Shown one piece after another: positions 40,885 through 55,129 of a DNA stretch of 64,000 nt. Position numbers and translations under genes: made by a program. How positions within the stretch are numbered: the stretch's first letter is position 1; each line of letters begins with the position of its first letter. This DNA is from Candidatus Uhrbacteria bacterium (GTDB lineage Bacteria; Patescibacteriota; Patescibacteriia; JACQRZ01), in contig JACQSC010000002.1 in NCBI GenBank assembly GCA_016206155.1, forward strand, positions 15,473 through 79,472, read 5' to 3'. The notes under the pieces were generated by a model that was not told where the DNA came from, ran no database searches, and saw only the letters and a list, made by a program, of their open reading frames with translations.

Positions 40885-41400
40885 TTATCTTCGCTGTCTC
40901 GTGGGTAATAAATATTTTTGGGTATCTGCGGAAAGATCGGTAAAATCATCAACGTGTTCAAGAAGTTTGCTTGATGTCGTATCGCCAAAAGCAATAAGCT
41001 CAACAATGCATCCGCGATTCTCCTTGAGATAGGTCACCAATGGAATATAATCCCCATCACCAGTTGCCAGAACAACAACGTCAAGCTTGTCCGCCGATTT
41101 AATAGCATCCACGGCAAGACCGACGTCCCAATCGCCCTTTTTGCTTCCGTCGACAAAGACCTGAAGGTCTTTCATCTTCACCTCAAAACCCTGCTTGGCA
41201 AGTGCTTCAAAAAAGGTCTGCTCCTCTTGTGTCTTGGACACAACGACATACGCAATTGCGCGGATGAGCTTACGCCCAGCTGTTGCGGCTTTTAGCAGTT
41301 CTTGAAAATTAACCCTTCGATTGTAGAGATTTTTTGCCGAGTGGTACATGTTCCCAACATCAACAAATAGCCCCACTCGTTGTTCTTTGTGTTTTACCAT
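40885..41400 (-). CDS. NYN/LabA-like PIN-domain protein
   Basis: 'RVGLFVDVGNMYHSAKNL...RAIAYVV...VVVLATGDGDYIPLV' is the NYN domain pattern. Confidence 0.7.
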   Translation of the reverse strand: MVKHKEQRVGLFVDVGNMYHSAKNLYNRRVNFQELLKAATAGRKLIRAIAYVVVSKTQEEQTFFEALAKQGFEVKMKDLQVFVDGSKKGDWDVGLAVDAIKSADKLDVVVLATGDGDYIPLVTYLKENRGCIVELIAFGDTTSSKLLEHVDDFTDLSADTQKYLLPTRQRR

Positions 41401-44080: not shown

Positions 44081-45166
44081 TCAAAACGATGTACAAGACG
44101 CATACATAGGTAACACTTTTGATAGTTCAAGAGGTGGTTTGTAGTTCAGCGATTGATGAGGGCGTCTGAAGTTGTACTCAATCAGCCATTCAGTCAGATC
44201 TCTGTTAAAGATCAATGGGTCAGGATCGAACCCCTTCATCTCAATGAACTCTTCCTGCAGAGTTCTGTTGAATCGTTCATTGTTCGGATTGTCTTTTGGC
44301 GTGTGTACTCTGCTGTAGTATTGTTCAATGCCGAGTTCCAGGCACGCGGCCTTAAAGTATTTCTCAAACTCTGTTCCATTGTCGTGGCCGACTCGTGGAA
44401 TCTGTCCGTCAAGGAGGTAGTGGAGGCGCAGTAGAAAATCCTCACCATTCTTTGAGCTCTTGGACGTGTACATTCGCGCAAAGGCCACCTTGCCATACTT
44501 GTCGACAGCCGTGAAGATATATCGTTTCAATCCATGCCAGTATATCACGATCGTATCAAGGCAGATAATGTAGCCGGCTCTTTTCTGCCAGGGCAGGATG
44601 TTCTTCACAAGATCAATGGTCTTTTTCTTTTTCTGTGCTTTTCTTCGTTTTGCTTGTATTCTCTTGTTTTTTGAGGGTTTGTAGTAGAGCTTGAAGTCTG
44701 TAATAACGCACTGGATTTTCCATGAAGAAATTGTCTCTCCATAGGTTTGCTCATAGATTTCTTTGAGCTTCATTTTGCCATAGCGCATGTTGGACTTTCT
44801 GGGGGCTATGATACGTTCTAAAACGTCTGGGGCGATTGTACGGCCTCGTTTTTTCCTTGGAGAGCGTGATTTGTCCTCAAGGAGGTGGAGAGTGTAGAGA
44901 TTTCGCTCGTCAAAGAGTTTGAACCATTTGTAGAAGGTTTTTCCCGGGATGCCAAAGTGCCGGCAGGCTAATGAGGCGTTTCCCTCGTGTTCGTAGTACC
45001 AGATGATCCAGTCAAGGCGCTGTTTTGCTTTCTTTGAAACCTTGAGGATGTCTGCGACGCGTCTCCAGCGCTCATATTTGTCCAAAAGAGTATGGCGGTA
45101 GTAAGGGAAGTGCTTGAAAAGATCTTCAAGGCGCAATTTCTCTGGGGTATGGTATGCTGTTTGCAT
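44081..45166 (-). CDS. DDE transposase with an integrase (rve) core and an N-terminal HTH
   Basis: 'TAVDKYGKVAFARMYTSKSSKNG...GHDNGTEFEKY...YSRVHTPKDNPNNERFNRTLQEEF' is a DDE rve core. Single ORF of about 360 aa with an HTH N-terminus, as in IS481 members. Confidence 0.8.
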   Translation of the reverse strand: MQTAYHTPEKLRLEDLFKHFPYYRHTLLDKYERWRRVADILKVSKKAKQRLDWIIWYYEHEGNASLACRHFGIPGKTFYKWFKLFDERNLYTLHLLEDKSRSPRKKRGRTIAPDVLERIIAPRKSNMRYGKMKLKEIYEQTYGETISSWKIQCVITDFKLYYKPSKNKRIQAKRRKAQKKKKTIDLVKNILPWQKRAGYIICLDTIVIYWHGLKRYIFTAVDKYGKVAFARMYTSKSSKNGEDFLLRLHYLLDGQIPRVGHDNGTEFEKYFKAACLELGIEQYYSRVHTPKDNPNNERFNRTLQEEFIEMKGFDPDPLIFNRDLTEWLIEYNFRRPHQSLNYKPPLELSKVLPMYASCTSF

Positions 45167-45250
45167 AGATGAGATGCATTATGGTAACTTAGGCTCCCTT
45201 TATTGTACCACTTCGTGGCACATCAAGGGTGTTACCGATGTATCTCATCT
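44095..45250. mobile_element. IS481-family-like insertion sequence (~1.16 kb) with ~29 bp imperfect terminal inverted repeats
   Basis: Left end 'aagacgcatacataggtaacacttttgat' against the reverse complement of the right end 'aagatgagatacatcggtaacacccttgat', matching at 24 of 29. Single transposase ORF inside. Confidence 0.65.
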
Positions 45251-45331
45251 TTTGCAGTCTTTGTACAACGGTATTGCGTATTTCGAATGAGTTTGATATA
45301 TTTACATAGTACATAATCGAACTTCGATTCT

Positions 45332-46090
45332 ATGTTGATAAAAGAAAAAGAGAAAAGGCAGGCCATTTTACTAAGAAAGCGGGGTAAAAGTTATAGCGAA
45401 ATACAAAAAGTAGTTGGCGTCTCTATGTCAAGTATAAGTTTGTGGTTGCGAAATGTTCCGCTCAGTAAGAGGCAAAAAGATCGTTTATTTCGATTAAAAG
45501 TGCGGGGGGCAAAAAATGGGGGTGGCAAAAAAAAGCACCTTCAGAGATTGTATGAATCAAAAAAAATTATAAGGTCGGCCTGGGATGAATTTCCTAAAAA
45601 AATTTCGAGTCCACTATTTTTATTAGGTGTTTCCCTTTACTGGGCGGAGGGATCAAAAGCGGACGAAAAAATGTCTCTAAGCAATTCTGATCACCTTATG
45701 ATAGAATGCTTTATGAAGTGGTTAAGAGAGGTATGCGATGTTCCTGAAAAAAAGGTGCGCGTTCATCTTCATATTCACTCGCTCCACTCAAAAAAAGGTA
45801 TAGAAAAATATTGGTCCCGCATCACACACATTCCCTTAAATCAGTTTATAAAGACCTATGTAAAAACGACTTCACTGGGACACAGAAAAAACATACTCTA
45901 TAATGGTACTTGTACTGTCAATGTCCATGATGTAACATTGTATCGAAAAATGATTGGGTGGCAATTGGGCTTACTGGAATATTTGAACCTTATTTCCCCG
46001 TCAGAGAATGAAAAAAATTGTATCATCGACCGCATCATAAAAAAAAGAACAATGAAACAGATAGCGAGCACTCTAATTGTGCGCCCATAG
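45332..46090 (+). CDS. HTH-containing protein, possibly a degenerate LAGLIDADG-type homing endonuclease
   Basis: N-terminal HTH 'KSYSEIQKVVGVSMSSISLWLRNV'. 'LLGVSLYWAEGSKAD' loosely resembles a LAGLIDADG block. The stop overlaps the tRNA-Arg 5' end by 10 nt. Confidence 0.35.
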   Translation: MLIKEKEKRQAILLRKRGKSYSEIQKVVGVSMSSISLWLRNVPLSKRQKDRLFRLKVRGAKNGGGKKKHLQRLYESKKIIRSAWDEFPKKISSPLFLLGVSLYWAEGSKADEKMSLSNSDHLMIECFMKWLREVCDVPEKKVRVHLHIHSLHSKKGIEKYWSRITHIPLNQFIKTYVKTTSLGHRKNILYNGTCTVNVHDVTLYRKMIGWQLGLLEYLNLISPSENEKNCIIDRIIKKRTMKQIASTLIVRP

Positions 46091-46604: not shown

Positions 46605-47549
46605 ATGAAATCATCTCCCTCGCGGGAGGTGTTTTTATTTATGCCGTCAGGTATACTGCTTATATTATTATGCTTTTTTATGCTTTGGTTTCCCTTTGCA
46701 CTCTTTAGCGCCGTCATTCTTGCTTCGCGGCGCACCTACGAAAAGAATCTTACGAACTCCTTTGGAAACTTTTCCATGGGATTTATTGTACAGTCCTTTT
46801 CGCTATTGCCGACACTCGTACTCTTTTTCTTTTTCCCTATTCCTGATGACTTCCTGCATCTACCTTGGCAATTCTGGTGGCCGCTTTTGATTATCTGGTT
46901 TGTTCTCTATCCTATTCAAACGTACTTCTTGTACCGCGGGCTCCGTGAGGGAGAACTTTCTCAAACCGTTCCGATCATGGCTCTCATGCCCGTCTTTAAC
47001 TTGGCTTCATCGTTTCTGTTGCTTGGCGAGCGCCCCTCGCTTATGGGGATGGTCGGCATTGGGATCATTGTTCTGGGAACCTATCTTCTCCTTATGGAGG
47101 GCACACAAAAGGAACACGGAAAGCGCTACAATAAAGCGGTGATGTATACAATCATCGCGACATTCTGCGTTGCAATAGGATCGACGCTTGATAAAATTTC
47201 AATCAATGTATCAACGCCGGTCTTTTACAGTTTTATGAATACGCTTGGTGCGTCGGTTGTCTTTCTTGTTCTGATGAATATCTATCGTCAGCGCGATGAT
47301 ATCCCAAAGATGCTTCAACGATTCTGGCCATTTACGATCCTTGGCATCTTTCAGGCGCTTCTCTATACGGCAAAAATGCTCGCCTTCTCCTTCGGACCAA
47401 CTTCCTATGTTGTTGCGGTTCTCTCGTCAAGCTTTCTTTTTGCCGCGCTCTTTGGTATCATCTTTTTGAAAGAGAAATGCACAATACGCAAAATGTCATC
47501 CTTTGGACTATTTGTTTTTGGAATTATTTTGATTACGGTCACCCGTTAA
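46605..47549 (+). CDS. EamA/DMT-superfamily 10-TM transporter
   Basis: Two repeated 5-TM halves, drug/metabolite transporter-like. The start may be the internal Met at 46641. Confidence 0.55.
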   Translation: MKSSPSREVFLFMPSGILLILLCFFMLWFPFALFSAVILASRRTYEKNLTNSFGNFSMGFIVQSFSLLPTLVLFFFFPIPDDFLHLPWQFWWPLLIIWFVLYPIQTYFLYRGLREGELSQTVPIMALMPVFNLASSFLLLGERPSLMGMVGIGIIVLGTYLLLMEGTQKEHGKRYNKAVMYTIIATFCVAIGSTLDKISINVSTPVFYSFMNTLGASVVFLVLMNIYRQRDDIPKMLQRFWPFTILGIFQALLYTAKMLAFSFGPTSYVVAVLSSSFLFAALFGIIFLKEKCTIRKMSSFGLFVFGIILITVTR

Positions 47550-47600
47550 GACACTGTAACAAAAATCATACTATTCCCCAATTTTCTGAATTTTGATGTA

Positions 47601-47701
47601 TGCGGCAATCGGGATTTGAACCCGAATAGCCCCCGTTTCCTCAACTGACCACCTCCCCCAGTGAGGCATTAAAGGGGCATTCTGCCTTGAATCATTGCCG
47701 C
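47601..47701 (-). ncRNA. atypical 101 nt tRNA-like gene (possible intron-containing tRNA or pseudo-tRNA)
   Basis: Perfect 7 bp acceptor GCGGCAA/TTGCCGC, D-arm ATTC/GAAT, T-arm TCGGG-TTCAAAT-CCCGA. A 5 bp helix GCCCC/GGGGC is separated by 40 nt, read here as an anticodon loop plus a ~33 nt insert. Confidence 0.4.
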
Positions 47702-47768
47702 TTTATTCGTGTCTATGATAGTAAGACGCAACAAGAGACGAAAATGTTACACCGTGCTATACTCTTGG

Positions 47769-48467
47769 CATGACCGACGAAGAGAAGAAACAATCAGATA
47801 AAGCAAAACTTTTTATCGCGCAGCATAAAGCGCTGCTCATTCAGATATTTGCAGATCCAGCGATGTATATTGCAGATGCTCGGCCTGTTTCGCTGTTCAT
47901 GGCAGGATCGCCGGCGCAGGAAAGACAGAGATTTCCAAAAGGTTGACCAAGAGATTTCAAGTCAAACCGGTTCGTATTGATGCAGATGATATTCGTGAAT
48001 TTGTTCCCTGATATACCGGCGAGAATTCATTCATTTTTCAAGCGGCCGCAACTCGTGGCATTCACATTCTCTATGATCACGTTTTAAAATATCATTTTAA
48101 TGTCATTCTCGATGCAACGTTTGCATATAATGAAGCGCTCGTGAATGTGGAACGCTCATTAAAGCGGGATAGAAAAGTTGAAATTTATTACATCTACCAA
48201 AATCCTCAAATTGCATGGGAGCTCACGAAAAAACGCGAGGCAGTTGAGCACCGTTTTGTATCTCGAGAGGTGTTTATCAATGCTTTTGTCGCATCTCGTG
48301 CAAATGCCAACCAGGCGAAGAGAGCTTTTAAGAATTCTATCGAACTAAATCTTATCATCAAGGACGTTCGGCAAAATACCGAGCAAATTTTTTCAGATAT
48401 TTCTTTAGTTGACGATTATCTGCCAAGAATATATACTAAGGATGAACTAGAGAAAATTGTTCTATGA
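47769..48467 (+). pseudogene. zeta-toxin-family P-loop kinase, disrupted by at least two frameshifts
   Basis: Three frames together give 'MAGSP|GAGKTEISKRLTKRFQVKPVRIDADDIREFVP|YTGENSFIFQAAATRGIHILYDHV...'. The Walker A is split between frames. Confidence 0.6.
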
Positions 48468-48725
48468 TAAAAAATCTACTACAATCACTAAAGGGAGGAA
48501 AAAAAGTAAAGAGCGATTTTTCAACTTTTTTCCGTGAAGCGTCCCGGGAGCAAAAAGAAAAGCTCCTTCTTGAAGTTGCCCATGAGGCAAATCAAGATCA
48601 GCGCCAGATTCTTGAACGCTACGATAAATTGCAGGCGAAGAACACTTCCTGACATACCTGTAACAAAATGCCGGCCTTTTACGTCTTATATTGAATGAGG
48701 ATGAGATCCTCATTTTTTAATCTCT

Positions 48726-48865
48726 ATGCCCCGCACTTAACTCTGATTGGTGCCATGGAATCTCCACATTTATGATCACGATTAACAACTATAATTCATC
48801 ATTACTCGCTTCGTCTTCCTGTTCGTGTCACAGCATGAGGATAATCGGAGTTAAGTGCGGGGTAT
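48726..48865. promoter_or_regulatory. 23 bp inverted repeat with a 94 nt spacer, overlapping the ABC exporter start (long stem-loop or miniature element)
   Basis: 'atgccccgcacttaactctgatt' (48726..48748) against 'aatcggagttaagtgcggggtat' (48843..48865), 22 of 23 complementary. Confidence 0.5.
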
Positions 48866-50627
48866 GACTGTTACCAAAAAAGACATTCTGAAAATCTATT
48901 GGCGCGCGTGCCGCAATCACAAGCCTTCGCTATTCCTGGCCGTGCTTGGCGTTGTCAGCGGAGCCGTCGTATGGATTATCTATCCAATCTACTACAAGGA
49001 GCTCTTTGATCTTCTTGCGCAGTCAGAATCCCCGGATACGCTCTATCCGCAACTCATGCATATTTTTTTCACCCTTCTCTCCGTGTCAATTCTGGCCTGG
49101 ACGCTTCATCGCATCGCTGATTTTGGCAACAACGTCTTCCAAACAAGCGTAAAAGCGGATCTCAAAGAACACGCCTTTAGCGCGCTTCTTCATCATTCAT
49201 ACGCCTTCTTCGCCAACTCATTTGCGGGAGCGCTTGTTCGCCGCGTTCATCGACTTTCCTCAGATGGTTTTGAAGTCTTTGCCGATCGCATGCTCTGGAC
49301 GCTTCTTCCCCTTGCTGTGCAGCTTGCCGGCATTGCGATTGTTTTGTCTCTCAATCTTCCTGTCTTTGCTGTTGCGTTTATCGTCTGGTTTGTGATTTTC
49401 GCCGCAGTCCAAACTTCACTCTCAATCTGGAAGATGCGCTACGACAAAATCCGCGCGGAACGTGATACGGAAAGCACCGCGATTCTTTCTGACGCGCTTG
49501 CCAACCATACGACCATCCAGCTCTTTGCCCGCAAAAAATATGAGTTCAAAAAATTTCGAGAGATCAATCAATCACTACGAAGCATGATGCTCTTTACCTG
49601 GAATCTGAGTGCGATAATCGATGCGGTTCAATTCATCCTCTTCATGGTCATTGAATTTGTCGTACTCTATCTTGCGCTTGGCGCGTGGCGAGACGGGTCA
49701 ATCACGATTGGAACGTTCGTCCTTGTCCAATCCTATATGATCCAGATTTTTGGGCGGTTGTGGGATTTTGGCAGAGCGGTGCGCAGCATCTTTACAAGCT
49801 TCGCCGATGCAAAAGAGATGGTTGAAATAATGCTCAAGCCAGTTGACGTCACGGACACGCCAGGAGCAAAAACCCTTCACGTCATGCATGGCGAAATTGT
49901 CTTTGATCGCGTTTCATTCTCCTACCAAAAAACACGGCGGGTACTCAACGCATTCAGCGGCACCATTCGGGCCGGCGAGCGAGTCGCCCTTGTCGGCCAT
50001 TCCGGCGCGGGGAAATCAACAATTGTGAAGCTCCTGCTCCGTCTTCACGATCTTGAGAGCGGGAAAATACTGATTGACGGACAACATATCCAGAAAGTAA
50101 CTCAAGACAGTCTTCGCGCATCAGTTGCCTTTGTCCCCCAAGAACCGCTTCTGTTCCATCGGACGCTTATGGAAAACATCCGCTACGGCCGCCCTGATGC
50201 GACCGATGATGGGGTCGTCAGGGCTTCGCGCTTGGCGCACTGTGATGAATTTATTCATGATCTTCCGGAACGCTATGACACGCTCGTTGGTGAACGTGGC
50301 ATCAAACTCTCTGGTGGCGAACGCCAACGCATCGCGATTGCGCGAGCGATCTTAAAAAACGCCCCCATCCTCGTTCTTGACGAAGCGACTTCAAGTCTGG
50401 ACTCAGAGTCGGAGATGATGATTCAAGATGCGCTTGCGGCATTGATGAAAAACAAAACAACAATCGCCATTGCGCACCGCCTCTCGACGATCAAACAGAT
50501 GGATCGTATCCTGGTCATTGATGAAGGCAAACTCATAGAAGAAGGCGCGCACGAAGAGCTGATTAAAAAGCGGGGAAGCCTCTATGGGAAGCTATGGAAA
50601 CTTCAGTCCGGTGGATTTCTTGCATAG
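48855..50627 (+). CDS. ABC exporter, fused permease and ATPase (MsbA/type I exporter-like)
   Basis: Six-TM N-terminal domain and a C-terminal NBD with 'GHSGAGKST', 'LSGGERQRIAIARA' and 'ILVLDEATSSLD'. Confidence 0.85.
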   Translation: MRGMTVTKKDILKIYWRACRNHKPSLFLAVLGVVSGAVVWIIYPIYYKELFDLLAQSESPDTLYPQLMHIFFTLLSVSILAWTLHRIADFGNNVFQTSVKADLKEHAFSALLHHSYAFFANSFAGALVRRVHRLSSDGFEVFADRMLWTLLPLAVQLAGIAIVLSLNLPVFAVAFIVWFVIFAAVQTSLSIWKMRYDKIRAERDTESTAILSDALANHTTIQLFARKKYEFKKFREINQSLRSMMLFTWNLSAIIDAVQFILFMVIEFVVLYLALGAWRDGSITIGTFVLVQSYMIQIFGRLWDFGRAVRSIFTSFADAKEMVEIMLKPVDVTDTPGAKTLHVMHGEIVFDRVSFSYQKTRRVLNAFSGTIRAGERVALVGHSGAGKSTIVKLLLRLHDLESGKILIDGQHIQKVTQDSLRASVAFVPQEPLLFHRTLMENIRYGRPDATDDGVVRASRLAHCDEFIHDLPERYDTLVGERGIKLSGGERQRIAIARAILKNAPILVLDEATSSLDSESEMMIQDALAALMKNKTTIAIAHRLSTIKQMDRILVIDEGKLIEEGAHEELIKKRGSLYGKLWKLQSGGFLA

Positions 50628-51899: not shown

Positions 51900-54452
51900 T
51901 CAGATCATTTTTTGCTGTCCGCTGTCTGGTTTTTTGATGTTCAAATGCTCATACGCACGATCGGTTGCGATACGTCCGCGGGGAGTGCGATTAAGAAATC
52001 CGATTTGCAATAAAAACGGTTCACAGACCTCTTCCACGGTTTCCATCTCCTCGGCAATGGATGCGGCGATCGTGTTTAGTCCTACGGGGCCGCCGTTAAA
52101 TTTTTCGATGATTGTGTGAAGAATTTTTCGATCAACTGCATCAAGCCCCTGCTCATCAACGCCAAGCTTGTGCAATGCCTCTGATGTTTGTGTATGACCA
52201 ATAGTGCCATCACCTTTGATCTGCGCGTAATCGCGTACGCGCTTAAGCAAGCGATTTGCAATACGCGGTGTTGAGCGGGAGCGGCGAGCAATCTCTTCTG
52301 CCGCTGACTGATCTATCGCTACGCCTAAAATTCGTGCTGAACGCTCAACGATCTGCATAATCTCTTCCGAGGTATAAAAATCAAGATGAAAAAGCGTGCC
52401 AAATCGATCGCGGAGCGGACCCGTTAGCAAACTCATGCGCGTGGTTGCACCCACAAGCGTAAACTTAGGGAGGTCAAGACGAATGGTGCGCGCGGACGGC
52501 CCTTTCCCGAGTACGATATCAAGCGCATAATCTTCCATCGCTGGATACAGCGCTTCGGAAATGCTTTTTGACAAACGGTGAATCTCATCGATAAAAAGAA
52601 TGTCACCATCAGAGAGGTTGGTCAGAATCGCCGCCAAGTCACCAACTCGCTCAAGCGCTGAGCCGGATGTCACGCGCACCTGCACCCCGCGCTCATTGGC
52701 GATGACGTGTGAAAGTGTCGTGTTGTGATTCACGAACGAGTTTGCGACGAATGAATGTGTTTTGGGTACACAAAAATCATAAACCTCTGCCTTCTGATGT
52801 TCAATGGAAGAGATACTATCCCAGTAGTATTGTGGATCCATCAGCGCCTTTAACGTTGAAAATTCTTGATTCATTTTAGCTGAATCTGGAAGAAGGGCAA
52901 GATATTTTTCTATCGTAGTGCGAGAAAAAGATCTATCTTCATTTCTTGCATGTTGGAATCTATGATGCAGATTACGAGGATGGGGACGAGTCGCGGTAAG
53001 AATTTTGTAGAGGAGCGACGAGGCGTACGGAACGACCTCTGAACGAGAAAATCCACGTTTACTGCTTTTTAATATTGAAAGTCGCTCTTGCTTCCTTCTC
53101 AGTCGAAAACCTATCGTTTTATAAAAAATTTCTGCATTTTTTCCACCCACAAACAACTGCCAATATCGTTCACCCTTTACTATTTTTTTCTCACGGTGCG
53201 CGATGATGCCAAAATTTGCAAGAAGAATTTGAGTTTGCCGTGCAAGAACGGTGGATTTTGTATAGAAATCAACATAGCCATCACACCGAGCTGAACCATC
53301 GGCGTCAAATAAACCCTGAAAAAAACCACATACAACGCGCGCGGGGCTTTTCAATATTGCTGACGGGATACTTTTTTCTGCCGCTCGTGCCGGATGTATG
53401 CCAAGGGAAATCAAAAGATGTCCAAAATTTTGACTAAATCGCATCCGCGGAGCTCTATTTTCATAAACCCCAAGACTGGGAGTCCAGCCAAATTGTTCCC
53501 TGATAATCCTGCTTATTTCTTGCTGGATGTCTTTTTCGCTTACGGTAATATCGCACGCTGGATAATTCATCTGAAATTCAAAATGACCATCGCCGATAAG
53601 AAGGCCAATCACATATGCGAGATCCTCATTGACAACATGTGGTTTTTTCCATCTTAATGCGCTTATTTCTAATGATGGGGCTTCATACAGTGTACTCTTA
53701 ATCTTTCTTCCATCACTGAGAGATAAATTCAATCTGTGGGCGGTAATGGGAATGGTAATATTTCTTCTCACTGCTCCAGCATATGCATATTCAAGCTCAT
53801 GAGCTGTTGGAGCTCGTTCAAGCGCCTGAACAAGAGCGGCACGCAACGAGACTGTGCGATGTTCTGTATGCTCTTTTCTCTGTGCGGGACTATAATACAG
53901 CGGCTCAAAGTCAATAGTTTGCGACGGTCCCCAAAGATGAGTACCCCGCATGATCGCAACATAGTCAGTTTGAGAAATTGCAGCGAGATTTTTCCACTGC
54001 GGTCCATTGGGGGTTGCGATGAGGACTGGATGATTAACCGTGCCTTCAATCTGAAATCCCGATCTGGTTGTGATCCGAATGGTTTGCCGGTATCCCCCGT
54101 AATAGATATGCGATGTATTTTCGAGACCCTCGCGACCATAAATATTTAAAGAAAGTGGTGCGTACGAATCCGAATTAAGGGGACGAAGAATAAAATCCTG
54201 AATGTGAAAGATGCCCCGATCGCTTAAGACAAGGCTATCCCCAGTAATACATTTCCCCAAGCCAGGCGCGCCGGAGAGAAGAACGTGCTCAAGCGGCTCA
54301 TTGCGCTGTTTTGATGCTTCGATAAAAATTTCGAGTGATTCTCGAATCTTTATCTGGCCGATGTATTCACGCAGAGTCCGCGGACGCAAGGTGGCATCGT
54401 CGCTCGACTCATCGGTCTTTGCTTGTTGTGCTGAAAATTCCTCGTCGCTCAT
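51900..54452 (-). CDS. ruvB: Holliday junction helicase RuvB interrupted by a 510 aa intein
   Basis: Extein: 'SGAPGLGK | [10 protein letters not shown]...[10 protein letters not shown]...' is the RuvB Walker A/B and sensor region. The 67 aa N-extein plus 273 aa C-extein give 340 aa, a normal RuvB size. Confidence 0.9.
52722..54251 (-). other. intein with a LAGLIDADG homing-endonuclease domain, inserted in the RuvB P-loop between GLGK and TT
   Basis: Starts '[10 protein letters not shown]' (Cys1) and ends 'SFVNHN' before Thr+1. Endonuclease motifs '[14 protein letters not shown]' and '[15 protein letters not shown]'. Confidence 0.85.
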
Positions 54453-54838
54453 ACTACTGGTATATTCATCTTCTTTGCAATCTGCTTAAGTTGACGATCA
54501 AATGTAACGACGGAAAGGTTCATGCGCTGCGCGCGCATGAGAAGGGTACTATCAACAAATGAAATGCGTTGTGGAAGTGAGGCAAAAAAAGTAATTTCAT
54601 CATCGAGCCATTCACCGAGCATCGTCATGTGATCTGATTGAACAAGGTATTCCAAAAACAAATCCGCCTGCTCTTTTGAATGTTTGTATGTTAGCACTGT
54701 CGCAACCTCGCCAACTGCGCCAGAAGTAATATACAGCGTTCCGTTCAACACTTCCATCAGATGTACCGCATCCTGATGGTTGGCATCAAAATCCAAAAAC
54801 AATGCGACGAATATCGAACTGTCAACGAGATACGCCAT
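54449..54838 (-). CDS. vapC: PIN-domain toxin (VapC-like)
   Basis: '[14 protein letters not shown]...D' N-terminal PIN acidic residues, about 130 aa, downstream of an AbrB-type antitoxin. Confidence 0.65.
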
Positions 54839-55076
54839 AGACGATAGTGTCAACGTTCTCGCTTGTGCATTGCTTCTTTTTCTTCGTGGGAATAACAAAC
54901 TGCCTCCACTGTTGAGCGCGAGGTGTTCGCGGCAGTACGTGCTTAATAAGAATAGTCGTCTGTTCTTGTCCGATAAGTACCGGCGTTCCCTCTTTGAAGC
55001 GAAGATTGCGTGTAATCGTACGGGGCAGGCGAACCGCCAAACTATTGCCCCATTTTTGAACTTTTGTCTGTTCCAT
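54822..55076 (-). CDS. vapB: AbrB/MazE-type (SpoVT-AbrB fold) antitoxin, VapB-like
   Basis: 'MEQTKVQKWGNSLAVRLPRTI' is the swapped-hairpin AbrB motif. Overlaps the PIN gene start. Confidence 0.65.
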   Translation of the reverse strand: MEQTKVQKWGNSLAVRLPRTITRNLRFKEGTPVLIGQEQTTILIKHVLPRTPRAQQWRQFVIPTKKKKQCTSENVDTIVYGVSR

Positions 55077-55129
55077 AGATGTGTTCGATAATGTATATAC
55101 ATATAAGTATATACATATGATTCTGCTTG

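Follow-up and report, generated by a model that had tools for sequence, protein, structure and literature searches.

A 101 nt tRNA-like gene in the genome of a Candidatus Uhrbacteria bacterium raises the question of whether a bacterial tRNA can contain a short intron of the kind found in archaea and eukaryotes, or whether the gene is a remnant that no longer decodes. We addressed this question in a stretch of 64,000 nt surrounding the gene (hereafter the window, meaning the whole DNA that was analysed). The original prediction had read the region at 47601-47701 as a tRNA-like gene, possibly with an archaeal/eukaryal-type intron at position 37/38 and the anticodon TAA, keeping a pseudo-tRNA or a mobile-DNA remnant as fallback. 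The most economical reading is close to that fallback: the gene is probably (we would put the probability at roughly 0.55) a disrupted, non-decoding tRNA relic on a decaying accessory segment. The sequence at these positions is as originally described, with the addition that the gene lies on the minus strand. Its parts, in 5' to 3' direction of the gene, are as follows.

47601..47701, minus strand: tRNA-like gene of 101 nt, 5' end at 47701 and discriminator A at 47601 (Rfam RF00005, fold, ARAGORN -i).
47695..47701, minus strand: 5' strand of the acceptor stem, GCGGCAA, forming 7 bp with TTGCCGC at 47602-47608.
47679..47692, minus strand: D arm, ATTC-AAGGCA-GAAT, with a 4 bp stem and a short 6 nt loop; A14, G18 and G19 present.
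47629..47678, minus strand: extended 'anticodon' arm, a 5-6 bp stem (GCCCCT/GGGGGC) round a 6x4 internal loop (TTAATG / AAAC) and an inner hairpin.
47635..47672, minus strand: 'anticodon loop' of 38 nt in the Rfam register, ~31 nt above the normal 7 nt loop.
47639..47666, minus strand: inner hairpin of 28 nt, CCTCACTG / CAGT(T)GAGG (fold).
47648-47658, minus strand: G-rich apical loop of the inner hairpin, GGGGAGGTGGT, including the Shine-Dalgarno (SD)-like GGAGGTG at 47650-47656.
47609..47625, minus strand: T arm, TCGGG-TTCAAAT-CCCGA (Rfam alignment).

Read from 47701 to 47601, the minus strand is laid out as GCGGCAA-TG-ATTC-AAGGCA-GAAT-G-CCCCT-[38 nt]-GGGGG-CTAT-TCGGG-TTCAAAT-CCCGA-TTGCCGC-A, and CCA is not encoded. 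The universal tRNA core is complete (U8, A14, G18, G19, G53, T54, psi55, C56, A58 and C61); G9, G26 and the A15-U48 pair are present as well, and the variable loop is the 4 nt CTAT. Searching 301 nt with relaxed filters, the Rfam tRNA model (RF00005) aligned end-to-end with 46.5 bits (E 4.3e-9), and the E-value was still ~1e-6 when rescaled to the whole window. A covariance score under the pseudogene threshold, together with the lack of a conserved counterpart, had been named beforehand as an outcome that would speak against the original prediction; the score obtained lies above the gathering score of 29. The MFE fold of the whole molecule is a cloverleaf (-42.3 kcal/mol, z = -3.2). Together, the Rfam score and this fold bear out the textbook acceptor, D and T arms that had been claimed, and the gene is of tRNA ancestry. 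The acceptor and T stems can be drawn in two ways, as an 8 bp acceptor with a 4 bp T stem in the MFE fold or as 7/5 in the Rfam alignment, which are equally good because A(47609) pairs with either U.

The anticodon stem is CCCCT/GGGGG or, one register over, GCCCC/GGGGC. The latter helix had been predicted to enclose 40 nt and does so, and in the Rfam register the enclosed loop measures 38 nt, compared with 7 nt in a normal tRNA. The RF00005 alignment places a 36 nt insertion in this loop, and in the MFE fold the arm starts as a stem of 6 bp, opens into a 6x4 internal loop and closes with a bulged hairpin of 9 bp. The extra segment of 31-33 nt agrees with the insertion of ~33 nt that had been described at the anticodon arm; both the insertion, at ~31 nt, and its location within the anticodon loop are clear. 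Folded by itself, the extended arm reached z = -1.7 relative to shuffled sequence, i.e. a stability that is unremarkable for its composition. The inner 28 nt hairpin occurs a single time in the window at <=3 mismatches, and a REP or MITE element was rejected as its source on account of this uniqueness. Hand inspection of the internal loop found no K-turn.

Standard searches overlook the gene. Default ARAGORN over the window called five ordinary tRNAs and not this one, nor was it reported by Rfam with default filters. An ARAGORN run with intron models, which had been proposed as a check of the original prediction, returned only a forced tRNA-His(atg). This implausible solution, in which the intron measures 9 nt, the anticodon stem is mismatched and the 'variable arm' is unpaired, is not credible.

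Two further features of the insert were observed. A frame of 32 codons (LRKRGLFGFKSRLPHTSKFRKLGNSMIFVTVS; window 47546-47644, minus strand) starts at a TTG immediately behind the SD-like GGAGGTG, crosses the 3' half of the tRNA-like gene and ends in a stop overlapping that of the neighbouring EamA gene; this frame is probably fortuitous. On the plus strand, the insert (47639-47666) reads ...CTGACCACCTCCCCCAG..., resembling the 3' tail of 16S rRNA (GATCACCTCCTTT), a short likeness noted post hoc.

An archaeal-type intron is expected to leave a structural signature. The bulge-helix-bulge (BHB) motif, in which a 3 nt bulge, a 4 bp helix and a second 3 nt bulge follow one another, positions both splice sites. 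Both stem registers were threaded by hand onto this geometry, with residues 32-35 pairing with the four intron bases that precede a 3 nt bulge ending in residue 38. Neither register yielded a BHB motif in the sequence flanking the putative splice sites: the required pairs fail (UUAA against AGGA, or UUUA against GGAA), and the unpaired regions of the extended arm comprise 6 and 4 nt, whereas a BHB needs 3 and 3. Among Rfam intron and ribozyme families, none matched between 47500 and 47800 at E<=10. A group I or group II intron was rejected on this result and on the length of the insert, 31 nt being far too short.

The identity of the presumed mature tRNA is equally elusive. We deleted every block of 24-39 nt from the loop in silico and passed the products to ARAGORN. 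They were called as normal tRNAs of 68-72 nt with the identities Phe(GAA), Phe(AAA), Ile(AAU), Leu(UAA) and others, set by the junction alone. As deletions of ~31 nt give several identities equally well, no anticodon is specified. The Leu(UAA) reading meets two further difficulties, since its register places a U at position 37, where a purine is expected, and since the 4 nt variable loop does not match the long variable arm of bacterial and CPR tRNA-Leu; a CPR tRNA-Leu(UAA) in one of the loci that we retrieved (L007) has the usual long variable arm. As it stands, the gene lacks a canonical 7 nt anticodon loop with U33, a defined anticodon and a purine at position 37; it has no assignable anticodon, and the known splicing signals are absent. 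With no BHB motif, a U at position 37, no long variable arm, an arbitrary junction and no conserved counterpart in the DNA searched, the intron at 37/38 with anticodon TAA finds no support. Literature searches for tRNA introns in CPR/Patescibacteria yielded reports of rRNA introns only.

Other classes of structured RNA were considered and rejected. An allo-tRNA or a tRNA-Sec-like molecule would need the long variable arm that is missing here, with the 4 nt CTAT between the anticodon and T stems. A tmRNA was found neither by ARAGORN -m nor by Rfam, and tRNA-Sec, Y-RNA-like RNA, SRP RNA, riboswitches and ribozymes were likewise without Rfam or ARAGORN support. The sRNA SpF41 gave a weak match (23.9 bits vs 52) that merely reflects tRNA-likeness. 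Comparison with 41 CPR tRNAs did not name a parent isoacceptor: the best match was a weak likeness to the acceptor and T arms of tRNA-His, which we did not assign because G-1:C73 is absent.

The genomic setting of the gene was then compared with that of its relatives. The segment that carries it, its flanks and its further contents are listed below.

46680..47549, plus strand: EamA/DMT transporter gene of the backbone; product identical to a Candidatus Uhrbacteria bacterium protein (NCBI).
47554..47564, plus strand: CTGTAACAAAA, the 11 bp direct repeat bounding the accessory segment, left-hand copy.
47565..48668, no strand: accessory segment of 1,104 bp with the tRNA-like gene and a zeta cassette (alignment with relatives).
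47770..48467, plus strand: zeta-toxin family pseudogene, PF06414 (Pfam, homologue comparison).
48464..48652, plus strand: intact 62 aa ORF, partner of zeta, overlapping the zeta stop by 4 nt; putative antitoxin.
48658..48668, plus strand: CTGTAACAAAA, right-hand copy of this 11 bp direct repeat.
48864..50627, plus strand: backbone gene for an ABC transporter, right-hand neighbour of the accessory segment.

The relatives of the EamA protein are all Patescibacteria. In the relative L009 (GCA_041643015.1), whose EamA is 81% identical, tRNA-His, EamA, 176 nt of spacer and the ABC transporter gene follow one another in the same order as in the window, without the tRNA-like gene and without the zeta cassette. 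When the two are aligned, the additional 1,104 bp of the window fall exactly between two copies of CTGTAACAAAA, of which L009 has one. In a further relative (L121, ABC transporter 85% identical), one 11-mer stands ahead of the same spacer and the ABC gene, again with no insert, and the more distant L122 has different genes between EamA and ABC. The two copies of CTGTAACAAAA are the only ones in the 64 kb window, where 0.04 would be expected. The G+C content of the segment is 0.41, compared with 0.44 and 0.50 in the flanking genes. Judged from these alignments, the segment is accessory, whether it was inserted here or deleted in the relatives; we infer insertion in this lineage. The search of relatives that had been proposed at the outset thus revealed an empty site in two of them, and a conserved counterpart was not found in the loci searched. 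The fallback of the original prediction, a pseudo-tRNA or mobile-DNA remnant, fits best with a gene on a 1.1 kb accessory segment that is missing from two relatives.

Several observations concern the borders of the segment. The junction motif ACTGTAACAAAA (window 47550-47566 and 48654-48670) is also a breakpoint in L121 (230-260), where a truncated EamA-like ORF is joined directly to the spacer ahead of the ABC gene; this sequence pattern suggests that a recombination site has been used more than once. The 1,104 bp segment itself has no identified recombinase. To its right, a MITE-like insertion of ~140 bp (window 48726-48865) lies directly upstream of the ABC transporter start codon. Its terminal inverted repeats (ATGCCCCGCACTTAACTCTGATT / AATCGGAGTTAAGTGCGGGGTAT) are 23 nt long and accompanied by a duplication of TAT(G); the insertion has no further copy in the window and is missing from L009 and L121.

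The toxin gene on the segment is dead, in line with the decayed zeta-toxin neighbour that had been noted originally. It carries a 1 nt deletion in the P-loop (Walker A codons) near 47912 and an in-frame stop (GGA->TGA) at 48009-48011. Pfam matched a C-terminal fragment alone, and an intact P-loop kinase ORF of ~232 aa is not present. Once repaired, the sequence has more than 400 intact homologues of 232 aa, with up to 66% identity. We fetched 80 genomic loci encoding homologues of the zeta protein, mostly from CPR genomes, and zeta together with an overlapping ORF of 62-64 aa is conserved across them; the partner ORF has 64 aa in L013, L093 and L094. In 4/80 loci the cassette directly abuts an ordinary tRNA gene (~1.3 expected, P ~0.04), a weak hint that zeta cassettes tend to settle beside tRNA genes. 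The tRNA-like RNA was rejected as a conserved zeta partner, since the closest cassettes (L013, L093 and L095) share a different conserved upstream region. In the closest intact cassettes of zeta and a 64 aa ORF, this region comprises a shared block (CCAGACAGGATAtAaCGCATTCGCGCC), a GC hairpin and a -10 box (GCTATAAT), and the block is located at 455-490 and 1522-1553 in L093, at 1440-1475 in L095 and at 2700-2760 in L013. In L093 it stands on both sides of the cassette, as expected of a mobile or tandem cassette.

The gene order around the segment runs from an IS (rve) with an HTH gene through tRNA-Arg, a small EamA-like gene, tRNA-His and EamA to the tRNA-like gene on the minus strand, and continues with the zeta fragments, the 62 aa ORF, the ABC transporter, RuvB (with intein), TsaE and TsaD. 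The IS transposase (rve) and HTH_23 genes occupy window 44081-46090, upstream of tRNA-Arg(TCT), and at the equivalent place L122 encodes a tyrosine integrase (1-176). The tRNA-Arg / tRNA-His neighbourhood is a hotspot of mobile DNA. The RuvB gene (51900-54452, minus strand) is an 850 aa ORF containing an intein with a LAGLIDADG endonuclease domain, and the RuvB of L122 is intein-free with 341 aa. A PIN-domain protein is encoded beside RuvB/TsaE (54449-55102, minus strand) and a NYN-domain protein beside PNPase (40885-41400, minus strand), both putative further RNase or toxin-type genes.

Homologues of the tRNA-like gene were sought at several levels. An exact 23-mer from the T arm plus acceptor had 0 matches across 185,579 GTDB genomes, and three exact 22-24-mers (3' half, 5' half and insert) had 0 matches in IMG/VR. 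An anchored pattern running from the D arm to the T loop with a gap of 25-85 nt gave 21 matches in JGI metagenomes, all of them false: they combined the anticodon arm of a tRNA-Glu (CTGCCCTTTCAAGGCAG) with the next tRNA or fell in an unrelated tRNA-Asp. Blastn against phage and plasmid collections returned no relevant match, and blastn and nhmmer of the RNA over the 80 zeta loci found a homologue at none of them. ARAGORN -i detected no other insert-bearing tRNA in the zeta/CPR loci. In addition, a custom scan for combinations of T arm, 7 bp acceptor and D arm, whatever their spacing, recovered 122 tRNA frames in ~0.75 Mb of mostly CPR DNA, none of the others with an insert. Diverged homologues could be missed by these scans because they are narrow, using exact words and one anchored pattern. 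Exact look-ups of the EamA and zeta-fragment proteins led to seven contigs from seven sequencing runs that are 100% identical over the locus; the available copies represent one clonal population. The minus strand shows no sigma-70-like promoter or terminator, although the sigma-70 consensus may not match CPR promoters.

How could such a gene have arisen? A tRNA gene, or a copy of one, may have travelled with a small mobile toxin cassette or been captured beside it. A short insertion would then have hit the anticodon loop of the captured gene, turning the anticodon arm into a long irregular hairpin, and what persists in the decaying cassette's company would be a relic unable to decode. A transcript, if one is made, could still fold into the L shape and undergo tRNA-like trimming, and reading of codons would be impossible. 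It is from the present structure and context that we infer both this order of events (capture, insertion, decay) and the non-function of the gene. What is observed is that the gene is tRNA-derived, non-decoding as it stands, dispensable and placed in a decaying context, as is typical of a tRNA pseudogene or relic. The perfect stems and intact conserved bases would also fit selection for a folded RNA, and a recent insertion explains them equally well. Counting against a relic, the extra segment is a neat hairpin and not obvious junk.

Three other explanations deserve consideration. The mobile cassette could carry the gene as a source of a tRNA-like RNA that functions without decoding. Its L-shaped scaffold would be bound by tRNA-processing or tRNA-binding proteins, and the GGAGGUG loop could serve as a decoy or regulator by pairing with the 16S anti-SD or by binding a cassette protein. 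The intact core and perfect stems are consistent with such a role, as is the GGAGGTG of the apical loop, which is complementary to the conserved 16S 3' tail. The gene is also divergent from zeta and lies 68 nt from the zeta promoter region, and irregular tRNA-like genes near toxin-antitoxin loci have already been described (PMC5389517). However, 0/80 homologous zeta cassettes have such an RNA, the closest (L013, L093 and L095) included, the cassette already has its conserved partner ORF of 62-64 aa, and the toxin is dead here. Moreover, an SD-like 5-7-mer in a G-rich loop of 38 nt is statistically uncompelling, the stability of the arm is ordinary (z -1.7), and no homologues were found, hence no covariation supports the structure. 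We consider a functional RNA of this kind unlikely. A functional extension built into the anticodon arm, be it a new class of short, protein-processed tRNA introns in bacteria or a decoy scaffold with an SD-like loop that moves with toxin cassettes, appears clearly improbable.

Tyrosine integrases commonly target the anticodon loops of tRNA genes. The anticodon-loop region might once have been an attachment site, with the 31 nt left behind as a scar of site-specific recombination after imprecise excision or deletion. The locus is indeed prone to recombination, with an IS (rve) and HTH beside tRNA-Arg and an integrase there in a relative, L121 reuses the 11-mer junction, there is a MITE-like insertion in the vicinity, and zeta cassettes abut tRNA genes in 4/80 loci (1.3 expected, P ~0.04). 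Yet this enrichment is weak, the 1.1 kb segment has no integrase, its junction CTGTAACAAAA lies outside the tRNA-like gene, and the 31 nt are flanked by neither a direct repeat nor a duplicated tRNA half, all of which make a scar rather improbable. More improbable still is a real tRNA gene whose short intron is removed by a pathway undescribed in bacteria, for example by an acquired archaeal-type endonuclease together with RtcB or by RNase III-type hairpin cleavage and subsequent ligation, with Phe(GAA), Ile(AAU) or a similar tRNA of ~70 nt as the product. The body of the tRNA shows no flaw, ARAGORN accepts a 68-72 nt product once ~31 nt are removed, and at the Phe(GAA) junction position -1 would be U and the intron would end in G; CPR bacteria are, besides, known for introns in rRNA genes (PMC10714607). 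Against this stand the missing BHB motif in either register, a length far under that of any self-splicing intron with no Rfam intron or ribozyme match, the arbitrary junction and hence anticodon, and the clash of the Leu(UAA) reading with U37 and the missing long variable arm. An essential tRNA would furthermore be unexpected on a dispensable segment that is absent from close relatives and adjoins a dead toxin gene, and no other insert-bearing tRNA occurs among ~120 frames in CPR-rich loci.

If the gene is a disrupted relic, it illustrates that tRNA genes carrying inserts of intermediate length escape both tRNA finders at default settings and Rfam scans with filters, and that small toxin cassettes of CPR bacteria can bear tRNA-derived passengers. 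Were the RNA expressed and processed, an outcome that the present evidence does not favour, it would be either the first bacterial case of a short tRNA intron that does not splice itself or a new bacterial regulator built on a tRNA scaffold, and would bear on the origin of intron-containing tRNAs and on exchange between CPR and archaea. Unless processing is shown, the importance of the locus is modest, with a single clonal population as support.

The locus can be compared with several known systems. Irregular tRNA-like genes that are non-functional in translation have been found beside toxin-antitoxin systems and transposon genes (Mukai et al. 2017, PMC5389517). Like these, the gene described here combines a tRNA shape and a non-canonical arm with a setting in mobile or accessory DNA next to a toxin-antitoxin cassette, its use in translation is improbable, and the 8/4 acceptor/T pairing with a 6 bp anticodon stem is possible (MFE), although 7/5 is equally possible. 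It differs from them in having no long variable arm and no homologue family that we could find. Its irregularity is a 31 nt hairpin inside the anticodon arm, as opposed to an extra acceptor-D loop or a five-stem junction, and its host is a CPR bacterium, whereas theirs are Acidobacteria or Clostridia.

With the BHB-intron pre-tRNAs of archaea and eukaryotes, the gene shares a short self-pairing segment in the anticodon loop, a perfect body and the lack of an encoded CCA; unlike them, it has no BHB motif and no junction that leaves a uniquely sensible loop, its host is bacterial and the gene is dispensable. Bacterial tRNAs interrupted by group I introns, such as the cyanobacterial tRNA-Leu(UAA), are likewise broken within the anticodon loop, and one possible junction here has a U at -1 and a terminal G as in these. 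However, group I introns measure ~200 nt or more and contain a catalytic core (P3-P9), in contrast to an insert of 31 nt with no Rfam intron match. Accessory DNA that is bounded by repeats, bears decaying cargo and is absent from close relatives is, finally, what surrounds the tRNA remnants at the borders of genomic islands. Those remnants are usually partial 3' halves or broken in their stems, whereas here the gene is of full length, with intact stems and a single internal insertion. As a tRNA-derived pseudogene or tRNA-like passenger on mobile DNA, the gene belongs to a known kind; its particular form, a complete tRNA body without flaws into which a hairpin of 31 nt is nested, and this in a CPR bacterium, is unusual and apparently unreported.
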